Source: a virus
Reading direction: 5' to 3' (one strand)
Virus record (IMG/VR): IMGVR_UViG_3300030497_000009
DNA: 63,578 nucleotides
In this document: one piece after another, positions 38,602-61,256 of the stretch
Layout of the letters: every line of letters starts with the position of its first letter
Numbering within the stretch: the stretch's first letter is position 1
Translations under genes and position numbers: made by a program
The notes under the pieces: model-generated
What the model saw: the letters and a program-made list of their open reading frames with translations, nothing else
The model's database searches: none
What the model was told of the DNA's origin: nothing

Positions 38602-40758
38602 ATGAATGTTATCGAAGCGAACTCTTGTTGGGATGCCTACCTTAAAACGCTGAAAGCGTTGTTAGACTCCAAACATCTTGATCTTCGCAACTTGTTTCTC
38701 CAAGTAAATAACACCGATGACAACTATATAACATCGTTACCCCATGCCCCAGACAACCTTCCTTGGTTCCTGCGTGTGAACTCCGATGTTGTAGAAGGTG
38801 AACTTGGTTTAGGAGCTGGGCTGGACGTCCGATACGACCAGAAACGTTTGGGGAGAGTTAAAGGACACGGTTCCTATGATTGGGGCTACCGCGATGAAAC
38901 CGGAAGACCAACCCAAGCTCTTTTAAATCTTATTATGGAAGATGACGAAATATTCCCAAATGTTGGGCGTGTTGGTGGTAATGGCCAGCTTCATTACGTT
39001 AAAGACCTTCTCATGAAGGATCCGACTTCAGATAAAGGCGTTGTATCATTTTGGAACTGGAAACGAGACTTGCTTGAATATACGAAAAGAAAGTATCTGT
39101 CACCAGAGATAGCAGGTGAGGAAGGCTGGTCTGATGCTCAGCACCAGCGTGTACCCTGCCCTGTCTCTTGGCATTTCACCGTCTCAAAAGAGGGCGTTAA
39201 TAACAACGTTTATTCGCGTTCGATGGTTTGGGATGACCATATTCACGATGACATGTTTCGATTTATCGAGCCTTGTAAATGGATAGGTGGCCACCTTCGT
39301 AGGAAGTCTGGTATCTTTACGCTAACAACCAACCGGCTGTGGGTTAAGAACTTTGAAGGTGATGTACGTGAACGGCTGACTGATTTATACGACTTCTGGA
39401 GCGGTCAACCACCTATCAGTAGTTATTATGACCCAATCGACTTCCCTTTATACGAAAAAGTTGAAGATTTTGAAAGAGACTGGAAACTAAAAGAGCTAGC
39501 GGAACAGGATTACCGGCTTGGAGCTTTTGAAGAGGGTGACAAGAAGCTTGACTTGATTAGCTCTGAATACTATAAGAACTGGGTGCGAGTGATTAAAGTA
39601 GCGGAAATGACGATATCCCATCATCATCTAGGACGTATGTTCAGACGTGGCATTCATAGCCGTGGAACGAAGAGAGCTATGGAGTATATAGATGAGTATA
39701 CGTTAATACGGGCTGTAAACGACGTACAGGGCATATACAGAGTTCAAACCGTGCAGTGGATAGTTAACTACTATTTACGTGCGAAACTCGATAGCGACGA
39801 ATATAAGACGTTTTTAGAGCTACTACCAGAAGAGCTACGAGAATTAACTCTTTTATCGTCTCTGCACCGCGTTAAAGAGGCAATAACAGAAGATGTAATA
39901 AAAGATATCCGTCCTGAATATCTTAAACTGAGCGAAGATTTCAGAAGCAAGGTTGTTCAAACAAAACTACCACCAACCAAAACGATAGGAGAAGATGAAA
40001 TGCGTAATCCGATTAATACTGATGTTAAATCCAAATTACTTGTAGTTGACCCATATGCTGGTGAGCGTGTGAACCGTAAATACCCTGCTTACATTGCTGA
40101 GTTGAAAAAGCGCGGTGAACTAGATATCTGTTATTTCCCTGTAGAGCCTTTCCACCGTAGAGAAAACAAACGACATGCTACCCAGCATGCCATGGAAGCC
40201 TGTGTAAAAGCATTCGTGCCTATCTCGTTAGAAACGAGACAAGAAATTCCAGCTTGGGCTATCGATGCGTTGTCACGTGATAAACGTAGTGAAGCGAGAA
40301 TCCAGATAGCTTCGATGGACGAGAAAAAGCAAAAGGTTTTATATCCATCGATGGCATCACCTGAAGAGCTTTTTAATTCGGTTGTACGTTGCTTTAACGC
40401 TGGTATTTACGTAGTTGTAAAGACTGCACCAATTATTCCACCTATTATGACTCCACACGATGTATTCCGAGTAGTTGACGCGGTACGAAGTATTGCTAGC
40501 AGTGTGGAAATCTGTTTCGCTTCGTTCGATGAGTCAGAGTATCCTGATTTAAAAGCGCGTGTGAAGAAAAGCGAGGTTGCTTTTGATGACATGTACGAGC
40601 TAGCTGAGGGAAGATACTTTGTTCGCCAATCATATCGACAAGAGTTCATTCGAAAGCTTATGCTGTTCACACAAGGGCAAAAGCTAAAACTGGAAGTTGT
40701 AAAAGAATGCTCTATCGAGGACGGAGAGGTTACAGGAGTGTTGCGCTTCGGGGAGTAA
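38602..40758 (+). CDS. Fusion of a divergent thymidylate-synthase fold and a degenerate SPL-like radical SAM domain
   Basis: N-terminus: QL..V..LL.KDPTS..V.SFWN..RD, PC(186) and RS(206). C-terminus: DPYAG.., ASMDE..LYP..ASP, GIYVVVKTAPIIP, with no CxxxCxxC. Confidence 0.65.
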   Translation: MNVIEANSCWDAYLKTLKALLDSKHLDLRNLFLQVNNTDDNYITSLPHAPDNLPWFLRVNSDVVEGELGLGAGLDVRYDQKRLGRVKGHGSYDWGYRDETGRPTQALLNLIMEDDEIFPNVGRVGGNGQLHYVKDLLMKDPTSDKGVVSFWNWKRDLLEYTKRKYLSPEIAGEEGWSDAQHQRVPCPVSWHFTVSKEGVNNNVYSRSMVWDDHIHDDMFRFIEPCKWIGGHLRRKSGIFTLTTNRLWVKNFEGDVRERLTDLYDFWSGQPPISSYYDPIDFPLYEKVEDFERDWKLKELAEQDYRLGAFEEGDKKLDLISSEYYKNWVRVIKVAEMTISHHHLGRMFRRGIHSRGTKRAMEYIDEYTLIRAVNDVQGIYRVQTVQWIVNYYLRAKLDSDEYKTFLELLPEELRELTLLSSLHRVKEAITEDVIKDIRPEYLKLSEDFRSKVVQTKLPPTKTIGEDEMRNPINTDVKSKLLVVDPYAGERVNRKYPAYIAELKKRGELDICYFPVEPFHRRENKRHATQHAMEACVKAFVPISLETRQEIPAWAIDALSRDKRSEARIQIASMDEKKQKVLYPSMASPEELFNSVVRCFNAGIYVVVKTAPIIPPIMTPHDVFRVVDAVRSIASSVEICFASFDESEYPDLKARVKKSEVAFDDMYELAEGRYFVRQSYRQEFIRKLMLFTQGQKLKLEVVKECSIEDGEVTGVLRFGE

Positions 40759-54830: not shown

Positions 54831-55268
54831 ATGACTATTTCTGTAGAGAAAACGATTGAATTATTTGGAGAAGAACTAAATCACTATAAATCTGATAAGT
54901 GTGTAGCTAACGGGGTTGTACTTCACATGGCTCCTGTTGGCGATTCTGGCTATTATGTTGGTACGTTTACTTGCTACGATGCGAACGGGTTGAAGAGTGA
55001 GAGAGCTTTACCGTTTGATAAGTATATCCGCGTTGTAAACGAGATTGAAGACCTTATTACACCGTACCAAACGAATACGTTTACAGGGCGTTTAGTTGGC
55101 CATAACCCAACTCCACGAGTACGTGAGTTTCTGTACACGAAGAAAGTTCACCGTATGTTCTTCCTTAACGAAACGAACGTAATGAACTTTGTTAAAAACT
55201 TTACAAGTAAAATTCGAGTTGACGCGCGTGCTGCTGACGGTATTGACGTGTTAGTAATCTTTGGATAA
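54831..55268 (+). CDS. Hypothetical protein
   Basis: GGAGG RBS, operonic position. Confidence 0.7.
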   Translation: MTISVEKTIELFGEELNHYKSDKCVANGVVLHMAPVGDSGYYVGTFTCYDANGLKSERALPFDKYIRVVNEIEDLITPYQTNTFTGRLVGHNPTPRVREFLYTKKVHRMFFLNETNVMNFVKNFTSKIRVDARAADGIDVLVIFG

Positions 55269-55281
55269 GGGGAGAATGACA

Positions 55282-55668
55282 ATGAATAACGAACTTCACA
55301 GAGACATCGAAGAAACGATTGATGAGATTTTAGCTCGTAAGAGTGTAATCTCTGAACAGAACGCGTTTAAAAAGGAAGCCATCGAGCAGTTAGAAATGCA
55401 GATGAAATCGAAAGGCTTAAACTTCTACCAAACTGAAACGCCTGACGGAGAGATTGTAAAAGTCACTCTACGTGACGTTGATAAGAAGAAGCTTGATAAA
55501 ACGGGCTTGGCTGAAGAGCTAGACGTTGAGAAGTCCGACTTGGACGCAAAAGGGCTTGTTCGATTAACAGAAGAAGGTGTGCTAAAAGAGGTAACTATTG
55601 ACAACCATACGATTAAAACTACTAAAACTGAGGTTAAAATAAAAAAGCGTAAGCCAAAGAAAAAGTAA
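55282..55668 (+). CDS. Hypothetical protein
   Basis: GGGGAG RBS, basic C-terminus. Confidence 0.7.
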   Translation: MNNELHRDIEETIDEILARKSVISEQNAFKKEAIEQLEMQMKSKGLNFYQTETPDGEIVKVTLRDVDKKKLDKTGLAEELDVEKSDLDAKGLVRLTEEGVLKEVTIDNHTIKTTKTEVKIKKRKPKKK

Positions 55669-55712
55669 TGGAGGCACACTGTTTCGACAAAGAACAAGAG
55701 GTGAATTTGTAA

Positions 55713-56084
55713 ATGGGCATCTTTAAAGATATGCTTGAAAGGGCGCTGGCAGAGACTAACCAAATTAACAAAATCGATTCCAATGCGTCGATTATTGCCC
55801 GTGATTACCAAAAAGAGTTTACCGAACTCCTTGGTCAGCCCGTGATTTGGACAACTAAGAATAATGTGAACCTACGTGCGCCCCAGCTTGTAGTGATTGA
55901 GCAAGTATTTCCACACTTTGTACTCGTTGTGAAAACGTCGTACAGTGTGGAGGGTGAGCGATACCTTATCCGGTATGGCATACCCTATCAATCCTTGTAT
56001 TGTAACCTAGATGTTTTTGAGAATCTTGACTTTATTGAGCCAACCGGAGGTGAAGAAGATGAGGGACGTGAACAAACTCTTTGA
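55713..56084 (+). CDS. Hypothetical protein upstream of the sigma factor
   Basis: GAGGTG RBS, 123 aa. Confidence 0.7.
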   Translation: MGIFKDMLERALAETNQINKIDSNASIIARDYQKEFTELLGQPVIWTTKNNVNLRAPQLVVIEQVFPHFVLVVKTSYSVEGERYLIRYGIPYQSLYCNLDVFENLDFIEPTGGEEDEGREQTL

Positions 56085-56598
56085 AGATTATAAGCCGTTG
56101 CGGTTATCCTTGTACAAACGATACCATCCGATGCTCAATGATAAAGAAGATAAAGCCGACCTACTAAGTCAGATTGACAATCTCTTTGTACGGTTAGTAT
56201 TTGAATGGGATCCCAGACGTGGAGTTGACCTCCCGTATTATTTGAAGCGTATGTTAAGCTTGCGTGTTCACCACTACGTTACGAAAACAATTGGTATTAA
56301 GTCGAAAGAAGTTCTTTCTGAGAGCTTCACGAACGACCTTATCAATTATGAAGAAGAGAGTGCGGAAGACTGTGTAGAGTACGAATTGATTGAGAAGATA
56401 GCGAGCTGGAATGATGATTTTGTTCTTGGTAAGAAACAAAAGAAACTTTTCGAGGGCTTAATCAGAGACCACCGACCACTACGCGATATGGCGGAGGAGG
56501 AAGGTGTAGACGTTTCTATCCTGCATACCCGAATGCACTTCCTGCTCAAGAAGTTACGTGCGCTAGCAGAAGAGGAAGCAAAGTTAGAGGAGGATTAA
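56059..56598 (+). CDS. Phage RNA polymerase sigma-70-family factor
   Basis: DLLSQI...F..L..EWDPRRGV....Y region 2; LRDMAEEEGV....HTR...LLKKLR region 4. GGAGGTG RBS before ATG 56059. Confidence 0.85.
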   Translation: MRDVNKLFEDYKPLRLSLYKRYHPMLNDKEDKADLLSQIDNLFVRLVFEWDPRRGVDLPYYLKRMLSLRVHHYVTKTIGIKSKEVLSESFTNDLINYEEESAEDCVEYELIEKIASWNDDFVLGKKQKKLFEGLIRDHRPLRDMAEEEGVDVSILHTRMHFLLKKLRALAEEEAKLEED

Positions 56599-56610
56599 CC
56601 TCCTCTTTTT
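56586..56610. terminator. Terminator between convergent units
   Basis: AGAGGAGG/CCTCCTCT stem with T-run. Confidence 0.7.
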
Positions 56611-56613
56611 ATT

Positions 56614-56697
56614 TTAATCACGTTCTCTGTAAAGGAAAACGTAAAGACTTATAATTACAACACTACCAAGACACATCATCGTTAAACCATAACCCAC
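56614..56697 (-). CDS. Hydrophobic micro-peptide, 27 aa (MGYGLTMMCLGSVVIISLYVFLYRERD)
   Basis: GGGGTGA RBS, GTG start, single TM-like segment. Confidence 0.5.
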   Translation of the reverse strand: MGYGLTMMCLGSVVIISLYVFLYRERD

Positions 56698-56817
56698 CTA
56701 CTCACCCCTGTTCGGCTCGAAACAAACGTATAAAATCACCCATATTGTTGCGAATAATCCAAAGATAGCTCCGTAAACGGTAACGATAGTGAAAAGCGTA
56801 TATAAGAAAGCTCGCAC
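56698..56817 (-). CDS. Hydrophobic micro-peptide, 39 aa (MRAFLYTLFTIVTVYGAIFGLFATIWVILYVCFEPNRGE)
   Basis: GGAGTG RBS-like site, GTG start, TM-like. Confidence 0.5.
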   Translation of the reverse strand: MRAFLYTLFTIVTVYGAIFGLFATIWVILYVCFEPNRGE

Positions 56818-56823
56818 AGACTC

Positions 56824-56886
56824 TCACACTCCCATCAGGAATTTACCTGCCTCCATAAGAATATACCCTATGATTAGATAGCCCAT
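56824..56886 (-). CDS. Hydrophobic micro-peptide, 20 aa (MGYLIIGYILMEAGKFLMGV)
   Basis: Strong GGGGAGGT RBS 8 nt before ATG. Confidence 0.5.
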   Translation of the reverse strand: MGYLIIGYILMEAGKFLMGV

Positions 56887-56918
56887 ATTTCTTTACCTCC
56901 CCTTCGTTAGCTTACATT

Positions 56919-56947
56919 TATTATTACTCAGGCTCTCGATTATATAC
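56919..56947 (-). promoter_or_regulatory. SigmaG/SigmaF-like promoter candidate
   Basis: Minus-strand GTATA-N17-AATAATA upstream of the micro-ORF RBS. Confidence 0.4.
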
Positions 56948-57210
56948 GGAAAACGTGAAAAAGTTTTTTCCTTATGAATTAGTGAGAAAGTAGTTCTCTT
57001 CCGCGTCTTCTTCGCGTATGCTATGGTATTCATACCTAGCAACGTAAGAGATTTACAGGCAAAGATAACAGGTAAATAAAGGTAAGCTTGCGATTCCCCA
57101 CGAAATAACGTGAGGGAATTTTTCATGTCAAAATGTGAAAAAAGAGGAATCATTTTTGAACTGTGTAATATGATAGAATTATACCTAGTAAGTAGAAGGA
57201 GGTAAGCGCG

Positions 57211-57321
57211 GTGGGGTTAATTGGTTTCGTTCTATATATTGTCGGTTTTGGTTGCGTAGTTAAAGGCTCAACTGACTTAATCGTTGGTAAAGCTCGTAAG
57301 ACCAAAAACAAGGGGGAATAA
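57211..57321 (+). CDS. Hydrophobic micro-peptide, 36 aa (MGLIGFVLYIVGFGCVVKGSTDLIVGKARKTKNKGE)
   Basis: AAGGAGGT RBS, GTG start, TM segment plus basic tail. Confidence 0.6.
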   Translation: MGLIGFVLYIVGFGCVVKGSTDLIVGKARKTKNKGE

Positions 57322-57325
57322 GAAA

Positions 57326-57748
57326 GTGATGAAAAAACCTATGGAAGTTTTAGACTTTAAGTCATTTGTGAATAACAAGTACGTTATAAAGAACGAAAAA
57401 GAGTTAGTTCGCTACGAACGAAAGAAAGGTATCTATAAAACGGTAATCCGCGTTGGACTCGTTTCTATTACTCTCCTAACTTCTCTTCCTCTCCCTCCTG
57501 AAGCCGTATATGCTGCGACAACCCTAGCCGAAGCTGCTCACGAGACGCAAGGCAGTACTTGGGATAAGCTCGTTGGAAGCATGGTGAAACTCTTAGACCC
57601 TGTGGCAAAAGTATTTGGTATCATAGCCGGTATTGCGATTATGACTGGTAATGGTAAGATTGGTATTGAAAGGCTCTTCTGGTTATCGATTGGATATCTA
57701 ACTGCCCGTAAAGTTGAAGACTGGATTAACTTCCTGAATCGTATCTAA
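57326..57748 (+). CDS. TrbC/VirB2 pilin-like membrane protein
   Basis: Signal-like segment ending AVYAA, then two hydrophobic helices (VFGIIAGIAIMTGN..IG..LFWLSIGY). Confidence 0.5.
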   Translation: MMKKPMEVLDFKSFVNNKYVIKNEKELVRYERKKGIYKTVIRVGLVSITLLTSLPLPPEAVYAATTLAEAAHETQGSTWDKLVGSMVKLLDPVAKVFGIIAGIAIMTGNGKIGIERLFWLSIGYLTARKVEDWINFLNRI

Positions 57749-57762
57749 GGGGGATTATATAG

Positions 57763-57840
57763 ATGAAAACGTTTATTAAGCTTATCGAAGTCGCCTTGTT
57801 TAGTGGTATTGTAATCGTGGTTATCAACTATTTTATGTGA
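57763..57840 (+). CDS. Hydrophobic micro-peptide, 25 aa (MKTFIKLIEVALFSGIVIVVINYFM)
   Basis: AAGGGGG RBS, ATG start; fills the gap between two genes. Confidence 0.55.
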   Translation: MKTFIKLIEVALFSGIVIVVINYFM

Positions 57841-57850
57841 GGTGTCGAAA

Positions 57851-58648
57851 ATGAAAGATGGATTTTATACGATGAAAATGGTATTTGCTCAACCGGCTGT
57901 TGAAGTAGCTTCCCGCGTCGGTACGATAACAAGCCAGTTTGGCCAGCAAGAGAAGTTTAGAACGCACGTGCACCACGGTATCGATTACGCTTGCCCCACG
58001 GGTACAGAAATCCACGCGCCTGTTGATGGGATTGTGTCTGCTGTGAAAGATTATGGCGATGTAAACCTTGGTAAAGCCGTATTTGTTAAGATGGAGGATG
58101 GCCAGCAGTATGTTGTTGGTCACCTAAGCCAAACGAAAGTCGAGGTGGGTGAGCATATCGAAACGGGTGAGCTCCTAGCTCTCTCTGGTAACAGTGGACA
58201 CTCCACCGGTCCGCATCTACACTTTGGGGCGTTTAATAAAGATGGTGGCTCTATCGATCCTGGAAATGTACCGTGGTCAGCTTTCGAGAATAGTGATGTT
58301 GCTTCGAATACGACTGGTAACGTAGATTTGGGTGGACTTGACCCATCGAAAGGCATCGAGCAGATACCCGATGGTGGTTGGTTGGGGCATGCTGGTAAAT
58401 GGGTTGGTGAGCACGTACAAGGAGGAGCTAGCTGGATACTTGAGCCGGTTGGGCACGCTATCGGTGAAGCGTCGGTGGCTATACTTGTATCATTCCTCCA
58501 CGCTTTACCTTTTATACTGGTAACTGGTGGGTTTATAAGCTTTCTATTAACAATTATCTTTGCTCACCAAAAGCCTTACTTTTATGGGTTGGGTATGTGG
58601 GGAGCTAGTGCGATACTAAGGGGGATTTTCATTGAAACCGGAATCTAA
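57851..58648 (+). CDS. M23 peptidase with C-terminal transmembrane helices
   Basis: HHGIDY, GHLS, SGNSGHSTGPHLHF; hydrophobic C-terminus. Confidence 0.9.
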   Translation: MKDGFYTMKMVFAQPAVEVASRVGTITSQFGQQEKFRTHVHHGIDYACPTGTEIHAPVDGIVSAVKDYGDVNLGKAVFVKMEDGQQYVVGHLSQTKVEVGEHIETGELLALSGNSGHSTGPHLHFGAFNKDGGSIDPGNVPWSAFENSDVASNTTGNVDLGGLDPSKGIEQIPDGGWLGHAGKWVGEHVQGGASWILEPVGHAIGEASVAILVSFLHALPFILVTGGFISFLLTIIFAHQKPYFYGLGMWGASAILRGIFIETGI

Positions 58649-61256
58649 TGTCGAGCCGTTGGATTGGAGAATAGCTTTTGGGTTGGTGGAAGTAAAAGCC
58701 GACCCTATCTCCTGCTTTAAGATTATTCCTGATAAATCAATTACCAACTATTCCAACTATAAGTTCTTTAAAGATATGTCAGAGCTAGAAGGCATAAACA
58801 ACATACGTGAAAACGCGAAGAACGTTGGAAACGCGCTGACAGGCAAAGGGCTTAAGTTCGTGTACCAGCTCCAGAATAACTATATCTGGTACGAGGTGGT
58901 TATCCGTGGTGGTGAGATAAACTTTTATGTACTGTGTAGTAAGCCGAACGAAAACTTTGTAAAGGTAAAGCTGGAACAAACCTTCCCGAATGCCCCAATA
59001 GAACTGGTTGACGAAGCCGAAACGATGATGCCAGAGGAAAACACTTCCATCGCTGATTTAAAACTCCAAAGACATAACTTTTTCAGCCTACGAACAAACT
59101 ATCAAGAACAAACCCAGCCCATCGAAGACATTCTTGCCTGTGCAGAAGATGTCCAAGAAGGGGATATACTTAAGTTCTCTCTACGAGCTCAACCATACGA
59201 TAGGAATTACTGGTCTTATAAAGCTGAGGAGTGGGAGGCACAGGTAAAGAAAGGTAAAACACCGAAACGTATGCGAATAAACAAGCAGGGAATGATTAAT
59301 GGCGTATTTGGATTGAGTGACATCGCTTTCCATAAGCTAGGTGAACTATTCCGTGAGATTCACCATATTGCTTTTCGTAAAGAAGAGAAACGACAGATTA
59401 TCATTAGTCGTTCTGACTTCGATGCTCGTGAGATTGGAGAGATAACGAAGCAAACGAACTATAAGATGACTGCCCCTGTATTCCGTGCCGATATGAAAGT
59501 TGCCAGTCATAGCGAGTCCGAGAGCCGACGTGTGCTGAATATGAAGTCGTTAACGAATGCGTTTGTGGATGTGAAAGACTCGAATAATGGACTGGTACGA
59601 ACAACCATCTATGAGAAGCCAGAGAACGCGTTACAAGAAACGAAAACAGGTTTGCTTAACAAGATATTTAAACGAGAGAAAAAGCCTAAAAAAGAAAGCT
59701 CAGGGCTTAAGGAACACGCTTGGAAGAGTATCTTTAAAGAAGTTAATAACCACCGCGTTTCGCCCTTCTCAGCTTTCGATATCGATTTTAACATCCTATG
59801 TGATAAAGAGTTAGGTAAATTATCGATGCTACCAACATCGAAGCTCCAGAAGCGTTTGAACGATAAGATGGACGCGTTGACCAATACTGAAGCCCCAATC
59901 CCAGAAGAGTTCCAAAACGAAGTAGGGGTGTCGATTGGTACAGCCGAGCTAAAGGGTGAAAGCTACCCGATAACGATTCCAGTAAACAACCCCGATGAGT
60001 TTTACAAGCCGATTGTTTCCTCTGGTATTATGGGTGCTGGGAAGGATACGTTTGGTACAAACTACGTATACGAATGTGCGATGCAGGGTAATGGAGCTGT
60101 GGTGCTTGACGTAATCGATGAGGATGACCGAGGTATGACTGACTCATTACTAAAGGTGTTGCCTCCTGACCGTGTGGTGGTCTTAGACTTCTCCGATGAG
60201 GAATACGTTCCATACCTTGACTGGGCTGAAGCCGTAACGGAAGATACGAACAACCGTTTTAATAAAAGCAAATTCGCGAGTGAGTTGACGAAGTTCTTTG
60301 CTGCTGAGGAAGAAGCTGGTATTCAAACTGAAAGATATCTACGTGAAGTGGTAAAAGCGATGCGTGGTGAGTCAGTCCTTAAGATGGGCTTGCTAATGAC
60401 TTCACAGACCTTACGTGAAGAAACGATTAAGCGACTGCGTGACCAAGGCGACCTTGCCTGTGCGAGCTTTTGGGAAGCGTATGGAAATGAAGGAGAAGGT
60501 AGACAGAAGCAGATTGCCGCACCGATCCTAAACAGACTTCATAAGCTTAGTGGTGACGATGCGTTAAAGTACCTATTCGCTCAAAAACCTACTGGAAAGA
60601 TTGATTTTGATAAATGGTTAGGCGAAGGTAAAGTGATTCTTTGTAAAATGCCGAAAGACCTGTATACTTCGAACGGGATTAAGACGCTGGTACACTGGTT
60701 AACGGTAAAGGTTTGGTTAACCAAGCAAAGACAGTTCCGTGAGAAACGAATGACGGGTACAATCCTCGTACTCAACGAGTTGCACCAGCAGATGACACCA
60801 GGATTGCAACTCTCGTTGGAAGAGATTTTCCCTGAATCACGAAAATTTAAACTGGGTGTTGTTACTTTATTCCACGACCTGAAACAAATACCAAAAGACT
60901 TATTTGACATAATGGAAAGCTCTGGAGCGAACTTCGTTATCCTAAAGCAAGACGGTATGAAGGCTTGGAAACGCTTTGAGCACCGTATTAAAGAGAGCTA
61001 CGACCTCGACGAGTGTATGAGCATCGTTAACCACGAAGCTGTGATTGGATTTAAGATTAATGGAAAGGAACGGGTTATTCGAGTAAAGATGAACCACACA
61101 CCAGAGAATCGTGGAGCTAAAGTGTACGATAATAAATATTTGGTCAAAGAACACGCGAAAGCCTATTTCCAGAAGATAACCGATGTTGAAGCAGAGATAC
61201 AAGAAACGGAGTTATTACTGGTAAATGGATTCAAAAAAGACAAAAAGAAGAAATAA
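58632..61256 (+). CDS. VirD4/VirB4/HerA-FtsK-like ATPase
   Basis: GIMGAGKD Walker A, VVLD, PILNRL, LVLNELHQ Walker B variant, ESRKFKLG...HDLKQ. Confidence 0.75.
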   Translation: MKPESNVEPLDWRIAFGLVEVKADPISCFKIIPDKSITNYSNYKFFKDMSELEGINNIRENAKNVGNALTGKGLKFVYQLQNNYIWYEVVIRGGEINFYVLCSKPNENFVKVKLEQTFPNAPIELVDEAETMMPEENTSIADLKLQRHNFFSLRTNYQEQTQPIEDILACAEDVQEGDILKFSLRAQPYDRNYWSYKAEEWEAQVKKGKTPKRMRINKQGMINGVFGLSDIAFHKLGELFREIHHIAFRKEEKRQIIISRSDFDAREIGEITKQTNYKMTAPVFRADMKVASHSESESRRVLNMKSLTNAFVDVKDSNNGLVRTTIYEKPENALQETKTGLLNKIFKREKKPKKESSGLKEHAWKSIFKEVNNHRVSPFSAFDIDFNILCDKELGKLSMLPTSKLQKRLNDKMDALTNTEAPIPEEFQNEVGVSIGTAELKGESYPITIPVNNPDEFYKPIVSSGIMGAGKDTFGTNYVYECAMQGNGAVVLDVIDEDDRGMTDSLLKVLPPDRVVVLDFSDEEYVPYLDWAEAVTEDTNNRFNKSKFASELTKFFAAEEEAGIQTERYLREVVKAMRGESVLKMGLLMTSQTLREETIKRLRDQGDLACASFWEAYGNEGEGRQKQIAAPILNRLHKLSGDDALKYLFAQKPTGKIDFDKWLGEGKVILCKMPKDLYTSNGIKTLVHWLTVKVWLTKQRQFREKRMTGTILVLNELHQQMTPGLQLSLEEIFPESRKFKLGVVTLFHDLKQIPKDLFDIMESSGANFVILKQDGMKAWKRFEHRIKESYDLDECMSIVNHEAVIGFKINGKERVIRVKMNHTPENRGAKVYDNKYLVKEHAKAYFQKITDVEAEIQETELLLVNGFKKDKKKK

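Follow-up and report, generated by a model that had tools for sequence, protein, structure and literature searches.

We describe here, in a viral DNA of 63,578 nucleotides (IMG/VR record IMGVR_UViG_3300030497_000009; hereafter the window), a conjugation-like membrane module (positions 56,614 to 61,256) whose promoter pattern points to sporulating cells, with a machine of pilin-like protein, M23 peptidase and ATPase predicted for the mother cell and a divergent peptide of 20 amino acids predicted for the forespore. Through these predicted compartment-specific promoters the module becomes a concrete candidate for active entrapment in spores, and one that can be tested. The entry of lytic phages into endospores is understood chiefly from phi29, a phage that borrows the host segregation, and since 2012 the module has figured as a non-essential translocon without a known role. 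Both questions can be addressed in B. subtilis, with phages already available and, in SPP1, with the inversion mutant SPP1invmir.

The reading that we favour, plausible while still short of probable, is that a mother-cell machine would move phage DNA across the sporulation septum, the forespore peptide acting as an exclusion or stop signal. Put more broadly, and more tentatively, phages and plasmid-prophages of spore formers might share a dedicated mother-cell-to-forespore conjugation system, composed of a sigmaE-built pilin pump and a sigmaF/sigmaG exclusion peptide. The original prediction, made from the sequence of the window alone, had described a divergent conjugation-like membrane module of eight open reading frames (ORFs), and all eight lie where it had placed them, on the strands and with the micro-peptides described, each with a ribosome-binding site. 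It had proposed a wall-piercing translocation device acting either at the sporulation septum or between chained cells: the first option is favoured by the sigmaF/sigmaG promoter of the peptide, a weaker sigmaE signal and the spore-forming hosts, whereas the second is not. The window phage is a large, SP-10/YungSlug-like Bacillus myophage, with YungSlug, Nachito, SP-10 and LysYB1 (Herelleviridae, Spounavirinae) as its kin, and its description as lytic, made at the outset, follows these Spounavirinae relatives.

A predicted forespore promoter on the divergent peptide

Positional analogues of the 20-amino-acid peptide, hydrophobic ORFs of 18-32 amino acids that point away from the pilin gene, occur in about 54 of the 81 dereplicated loci of the family. 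Upstream regions were scored against the forespore consensus, either GYATA-14/15-GGnnAnAHTR for sigmaF (PMC11599450) or the near-identical sigmaG form, with a cut-off of at least 11/12. A site was found upstream of the peptide in 37 of 54 loci and on the opposite strand in none of the 54; the corresponding figures were 1.1% for controls shuffled by the permutation of 2-mers, which falls short of a strict dinucleotide shuffle, and 27/1037 (2.6%) for other genes. Across the family, 19-40 nucleotides separate the predicted site from the start codon. When promoters were sought first, 42 of 64 loci had a site, compared with 1 on the opposite strand and 3.6% after shuffling, and further, uncalled peptides were exposed in this way. 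The peptide site of the window (56947-56919, 11/12) is one of only two sigmaF sites so scored on its minus strand, and those of YungSlug, Nachito and L006, a locus 98% identical to the window, match 12/12. We consider this forespore signal to be strong, and by sequence the window peptide has a predicted promoter of the sigmaF/sigmaG regulon. The position of the peptide beside the pilin gene is fixed in both clades of the ATPase, across elements of Bacilli, Desulfotomaculum and Terrisporobacter.

Elsewhere in the window, the minus strand has a site at 39453-39424 that matches both sigmaF and sigmaG perfectly (12/12), antisense inside an ORF of 718 amino acids (38602-40758; weak PHROG 'photolyase' match). 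No obvious ORF led by a ribosome-binding site was seen behind it, and by estimate chance alone would give the window about 0.3 sites of this kind.

Hydrophobic micro-ORFs led by a ribosome-binding site number only five over the full length of the window's minus strand, and three of them fall within 270 bp (56614-56886), a clustering that exceeds chance. Just one of the three, the 20-amino-acid peptide, is conserved, with orthologues in SP-10, YungSlug, Nachito and LysYB1. In comparison with L006, synonymous and non-synonymous codon changes were 7/2 for this peptide, 1/0 and 3/1 for the peptides of 36 and 25 amino acids, 13/1 for the pilin, 37/3 for the M23 protein and 127/20 for the ATPase; the synonymous excess in these six shared ORFs indicates purifying selection. 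All five micro-peptides of the original prediction are present as sequences, and those of 39 and 27 amino acids turn out to be unconserved: at L006:4063-4188 an unrelated transmembrane ORF of 41 amino acids stands in their place (window 56614-56817). The slot behind the conserved peptide is a swappable cargo cassette under predicted forespore control. Scored against the traits of type I toxins (hydrophobic toxin with a charged tail), the family peptides have on average 0.7 lysine or arginine residues each, and half of them contain GxxxG. At the position of the peptide, SPO1 gp29.12 (L019:62-223) and CP-51 gp98 (L023:1178-1357) are divergent genes of 53-59 amino acids with a C-terminal transmembrane helix, and the sigmaF/sigmaG matches in the regions scanned near them are weak. 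On the plus strand, a frameshift fusion of the 25-amino-acid ORF to the M23 protein as a signal anchor was rejected, since the frame offset is unconserved.

The cassette also bears on the alternative that the module serves some membrane function of the sporulation stage without transport across the septum, be it superinfection exclusion, the export of proteins or remodelling of the mother-cell wall, with the peptide serving separately, for instance in silencing or germination timing. We hold this alternative to be unlikely: the swappable extra transmembrane ORFs would suit it, as would the peptide transcript, which in compact loci runs antisense to the DNA-binding gene upstream, and the frequent location of the module between lysis genes and integrase, the usual place of accessory genes, but the fixed position of the peptide beside the pilin gene implies functional coupling of the two.

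A putative mother-cell signal on the machine operon

The sigmaE pattern used, ATA-16/18-CATA..T with ATA at -35 and CATA..T at -10, follows PMC3789822, against which the sigmaG and sigmaE patterns were checked in outline. At the heads of the machine operons of the family, a de novo motif, G.AT-N16-CATATC.T, was recovered, and sigmaE matches of at least 11/13 occurred in 11 of 61, with 2.4 expected, an enrichment of about 4-5-fold that sigmaK would fit too; sigmaA showed no excess at the same operon heads. Two relaxed sigmaE-type sites of 10/10 lie just before gene 31 of SPP1, and 8 of 10 loci of the SP-10 clade have a sigmaE site at the same place as the window. We regard this predicted mother-cell signal as moderate. 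Neither of the two recurrent promoter motifs of the phage lies upstream of the module, as had been noticed originally, and candidate sites for host sporulation sigma factors are present instead; with the sigmaF/sigmaG promoter of the peptide and the weaker sigmaE signal of the operon, they support the earlier proposal that the module may be regulated apart from the lytic cycle. The two recurrent motifs are an early sigmaA-like one, of TAGTATGAT type, and one of GAGTAAA...TTTTATTAG type; examples of the two types precede 21756, 35170, 53075 and 62025, and 32517, 44624, 50284 and 62549.

The same regions speak to a further alternative, an ordinary early lytic-cycle membrane complex read by sigmaA or by a sigma factor of the phage, in which case the sporulation motifs would be incidental. 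It draws on the annotation of SPP1, in which genes 31-32 lie within the early PE5 unit (PMC6316719), and of SPO1, in which gp29.1 counts among the early genes, on a possible extended -10 sigmaA box that overlaps the sigmaE site of the window (about 57172-57180), and on the phage sigma-factor gene just upstream. We think it very unlikely: the sigmaF/sigmaG enrichment is strand- and distance-specific and sigmaA shows none; the machine operon is typically insulated in the family loci by a terminator that precedes it; and the neighbouring sigma gene corresponds in position to SP10 g200, a late-gene factor that is homologous to the SPO1 late sigma, and small phages share the motif.

Other candidate signals were set aside. 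Reading a plus-strand AGGAAT motif as a sigmaH site found little enrichment family-wide, Spo0A boxes were not enriched in the family loci, the signals of the first motif runs were peptide codons and terminators and not promoters, and the intergenic region, where an oriT was sought, has no telling repeat structure.

The module is restricted to spore-forming hosts

The module is present in SPP1, SPO1, SP-10, CP-51, Basilisk, PBC1 and many prophages. Three different queries matched 102-130 records of phages. Their hosts form endospores in every case but one, a 'Microcystis' record that is probably mislabelled, because its score resembles those of the Slash/Stahl group of B. megaterium. Phages of Staphylococcus, Streptococcus, Lactococcus, Listeria and Enterococcus are numerous in the same collection, and none matched. 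Among 18 GTDB matches, 16 fell in named spore-forming genera and 2 in unclassified Bacillota metagenome-assembled genomes, and in a class sample of 401 genomes Spo0A_C was found in 56 of the 57 with a match against 334 of the 401 overall (Fisher p 2e-4). These sequence tallies show the module to be restricted to spore-forming hosts.

Conjugation-like spread from cell to cell in chains or biofilms (Pathria 2012, PMC3357382), with stationary-phase timing and the peptide as an entry exclusion protecting spores, would account for the pilin, the coupling-type ATPase and the relaxase found in some phages, and a wall hydrolase would suit passage between cells. The module is absent, however, from phages of chain-forming Firmicutes that do not sporulate, according to the record tallies, and the machine has no channel parts of VirB6/VirB8 type. 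A mother cell that expresses sigmaE is committed to lysis, and we judge this explanation to be quite unlikely.

Components of the predicted machine

The ATPase of the window is 28% identical to SPP1 gp32 over 97% of its length (E 2e-94) and lies on one family tree with orf201 of 0305phi8-36 (E 2e-6) and gp27.4 of SPO1 (E 1e-11). It combines a DUF8128-like N-terminal domain with a motor of VirB4/TrwB/HerA type and has no transmembrane segment. In structure comparisons the modelled motor domain reached Z 25.7 with VirB4 (4ag5), 24.8 with HerA and 24.3 with TrwB, and carries an all-alpha insertion as in TrwB/VirB4; the nearest full-length neighbours are DUF8128 and TraG-D_C/TrwB coupling proteins (TM-score about 0.5). 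Judged by these models, the ATPase belongs to the coupling-protein lineage, which bears out the VirD4/VirB4-like assignment made at the outset. Identity with FtsK/SpoIIIE was rejected (no transmembrane segment; Z 18-20 against 24-26). At the sequence level the ATPase had no useful match in the PDB, and Pfam and NCBIfam give it no name.

Its Walker motifs are unusual: Walker A contains GKD472 (residues 465-472) and Walker B N715-E716 (711-716). Among 156 homologues, 118 pair GK[T/S] with DE and 38 pair GKD with NE, with no mixed case. The GKD/NE proteins, including those of the window, SPP1 and Basilisk, form a single clade with support 1.0, and on the tree the coupled swap appears as one retained event, for which reason the pairing was not accepted as independent covariation. 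The idea that relaxase loss tracks this clade was also rejected, relaxases being rare in both clades.

The predicted pilin has a long basic leader, a hydrophobic segment and an AxA cleavage-like site. The original VirB2/TrbC-like label holds at family level, where 25 of 58 members match Pfam TrbC/VirB2 (PF04956; best 5.5e-7), the window protein by itself giving E 0.02. Against the PDB, the best matches of the family profile were weak and were to the pilins TraM (E 0.012) and VirB2 (E 0.043), and a fold search with the pilin model gave no match. A motif, [IL]x[FW]xxF[MV], is conserved at the N-terminus in the cytoplasmic leader (window 57329-57380 and many loci) and may possibly have a docking or targeting role; the SPP1 ATPase has a similar word close to its start.

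In the protein of 265 amino acids, an N-terminal M23 domain (Pfam E 8e-24; HxxxD and HxH intact) is followed by an amphipathic helix and two C-terminal transmembrane helices, a hairpin of SPP1 gp31.2 type whose membrane part weakly resembles the pilin family (hhalign probability 22%). The M23 domain would lie outside, because the loops of the hairpin are basic (positive-inside rule). The peptidase is membrane-anchored as first described, through its C-terminal helices, but the wall piercing that had been proposed is an accessory trait, since the M23 fusion occurs in just 18 of the 81 loci, in both ATPase clades, and SP-10 has no M23.

Layout and neighbourhood of the module

The features of the locus are listed in Table 1. 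The module is flanked on one side by a late-type phage sigma-factor gene (PHROG 1025) and on the other by a run of small genes including terD. A DNA ligase gene, which lies just before gene 33/sigma in relatives, is missing at window 55261-55713, and close relatives have, about 3 kb downstream of the module, a homologue of spoVS and an anti-defence gene, Gad2 (L028:10790-11110, L029:10293-10565). The module tends toward the edge of predicted prophages, because virus records often end exactly at the stop codon of the ATPase, as do the predicted records L009, L051, L062, L070, L076, L078, L086, L114, L138, L144 and L151.

Table 1. Features of the module and its boundaries in the window.
Feature	Position	Strand	Remarks
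Two-way intrinsic terminator	56586..56606	both	terminates both the phage sigma-factor gene upstream and the peptide transcript on the minus strand
Transmembrane micro-ORF, 27 amino acids	56614..56697	-	accessory, unconserved, replaced in L006
Transmembrane micro-ORF, 39 amino acids	56698..56817	-	accessory, unconserved, replaced in L006
Conserved hydrophobic peptide, 20 amino acids	56824..56886	-	predicted forespore-expressed
Predicted forespore promoter, sigmaF/sigmaG type	56919..56947	-	GTATA-14-AGTAATAATA, 11/12, 32 nucleotides before the peptide start
Putative mother-cell promoter of the machine operon, sigmaE type	57147..57174	+	GAATC-15-AATATGAT, 8/10, weak alone
Single-transmembrane peptide with basic tail, 36 amino acids	57211..57321	+	equivalents of 31-38 amino acids in relatives
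VirB2/TrbC-like pilin, 139 amino acids	57329..57748	+	SPP1 gp31.1 / SPO1 gp29.1 family; PHROG 5422
Single-transmembrane peptide, 25 amino acids	57763..57840	+	
M23 peptidase with amphipathic helix and two-transmembrane hairpin, 265 amino acids	57851..58648	+	overlaps the ATPase start
Soluble ATPase, 874 amino acids	58632..61256	+	homologue of SPP1 gp32 and SPO1 gp27.4; PHROG 5156

Across the 81 loci, a CopG-type DNA-binding gene is a neighbour in 39 and an actin-like ParM gene in 25. Large clostridial plasmids also bear the module; a Replic_Relax gene adjoins it in SPO1, CP-51 and one such plasmid, pCBH (L005), where the gene follows the module, and on B. cereus-group plasmids (L004) the module lies near ParM. 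No relaxase was found beside the module of the window, which is part of a contig of 156 kb, or in five complete relatives, with SPO1 and CP-51 as positive controls, in agreement with the earlier remark that none was visible. YungSlug has an actin-like gene elsewhere in its genome, outside the module.

A proposed route into the spore

In the mechanism that we favour, an infected cell would commit to sporulation and sigmaE would transcribe the machine in the mother cell; pilin subunits and the small transmembrane peptides would come together at the septal or engulfing membrane; an M23 domain, in loci that have one, would open the thin septal wall; and the ATPase would drive phage DNA into the forespore, double-stranded in the relaxase-less lineage and with the help of a relaxase or ParM in others. 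Once a copy of the DNA is in the forespore, sigmaF or sigmaG would make the 20-amino-acid peptide, which would block or close the channel as in conjugative entry exclusion, and the spore would mature carrying the phage, as a virospore. Transfer of DNA is the most economical reading because a pilin, a coupling-type ATPase, a wall hydrolase and DNA-segregation neighbours occur together, and entry exclusion is proposed for the peptide, whose synthesis needs the element to be in the forespore already. This mechanism would account for the lack of a phenotype of deletions in vegetative plaque assays.

Several observations weigh against this proposal: (i) the loci counted are kin, so that the family counts are phylogenetically non-independent, and with full-length matches alone the association with Spo0A is borderline (16/333 against 0/67, p 0.05). 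(ii) The sigmaE site of the window is weak at 8/10, with 52 sites of at least 9/10 window-wide, and the SPP1 and SPO1 genes carry the early annotations given above. (iii) SPP1 and Sam46 have neither the divergent peptide nor its promoter in the loci scanned, and parS is at chance level in the window, with no excess. (iv) An N-terminal signal peptide is found neither on the M23 protein of the window nor on any M23 fusion of the family. (v) The GKD/NE motifs are non-canonical and pumping by such an ATPase is not assured. (vi) The module of the window contains no ParM-, VirB6- or VirB8-like gene, and no multi-pass or large bitopic ORF was seen there or among the conserved neighbours; because of this, and because a relaxase stands beside only 4 of 161 loci, DNA recognition by the relaxase-less module is unexplained.

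Some of these points would sit well with conditional sabotage, in which the mother-cell machine would breach the septum or damage the forespore, aborting sporulation for the benefit of phage replication, with the peptide as antidote and no DNA pumped. The split promoters fit this scheme equally, as do the scarcity of relaxases, the altered Walker motifs and the recurrent M23 fusion, and integrated prophages, which need no pump into the spore, also keep the module. SPP1 and Sam46, without a peptide, would then abort all spores, however, and the ParM, CopG and relaxase neighbours and the lineage of the ATPase point to the handling of DNA, and we consider sabotage improbable. If true, it would add a new way in which phages control sporulation. 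Transfer into the forespore, if true, would represent active entrapment of phages in spores by a type IV machine that acts from one compartment to another within a single cell. The module also has a bearing on how phages persist in soil and in industrial cultures based on spores.

Comparison with known systems

The module itself is already known. SPP1 gp32 and gp31.1/31.2 have been proposed to form a translocon through the membrane, one that is non-essential and has no known role (Godinho 2018, PMC6316719), and the 'DNA translocation operon' of 0305phi8-36 (orf200-207) and SPO1 (27.3-29.1) can be deleted without laboratory phenotype and was suggested to serve transfer in biofilms (Pathria 2012, PMC3357382); by sequence, the window version is a relaxase-less relative of that operon. 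The SPP1 paper treats the genes as early, with no mention of sporulation, and promoters were not examined in the biofilm proposal. Our searches found no literature linking the module to compartment-specific promoters, within a coverage that mostly excludes subscription journals, and the recurrent divergent peptide, its sigmaF/sigmaG promoter, the weaker sigmaE signal, the spore-forming hosts and the GKD/NE swap were not found in the literature searched.

The likenesses and differences are as follows: (i) with gp31-gp31.1-gp31.2-gp32 of SPP1, the window shares the homologous ATPase of the GKD/NE clade, the pilin and two-transmembrane families, the gene order and the lack of a relaxase, dispensability in the laboratory being a feature of SPP1. 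The window adds the M23 fusion, two extra transmembrane micro-peptides and the divergent cassette of sigmaF/sigmaG type, whereas the gp31-type DNA-binding gene, variable in the family (39/81 loci), is absent from the window and the SP-10 clade. (ii) The operon of 0305phi8-36 and SPO1 has a homologous ATPase and separate membrane proteins but also a Replic_Relax relaxase and an actin-like protein, neither of which adjoins the window module, and the SPO1 ATPase is canonical GKT/DE, unlike the GKD/NE of the window. (iii) Conjugative type IV secretion offers the motor fold, DUF8128 with TraG-D_C (Patescibacteria, Bacillota), the pilin family and a wall hydrolase as VirB1 analogue; in contrast, the window has one ATPase in place of separate VirB4 and coupling proteins, without transmembrane anchor, VirB6/VirB8 or relaxase, and its module is phage-borne and under predicted sporulation-sigma control. 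(iv) Extrusion of inovirus type, considered for the gene sizes and a G7P match (E 0.21), was set aside, the ATPase structure being of TrwB/VirB4 type. (v) The archaeal Ced/Ted systems import DNA with one or more minimal pilins, a VirB4/HerA-like ATPase and no relaxase, together with a multi-pass CedA/VirB6-like protein; the minimal pilin and ATPase are alike, whereas the window has no CedA/VirB6-like protein and belongs to another domain of life.

Two systems of sporulating cells complete the comparison. Entrapment of phi29 in spores relies on Spo0A boxes and parS and borrows host segregation; the predicted outcome, a virospore, would be the same, but the window phage would bring its own machine. 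In the SpoIIIA-SpoIIQ channel, a mother-cell part under sigmaE and a forespore part under sigmaF face each other across the septum, and the predicted split of the window module between mother cell and forespore mirrors this arrangement.

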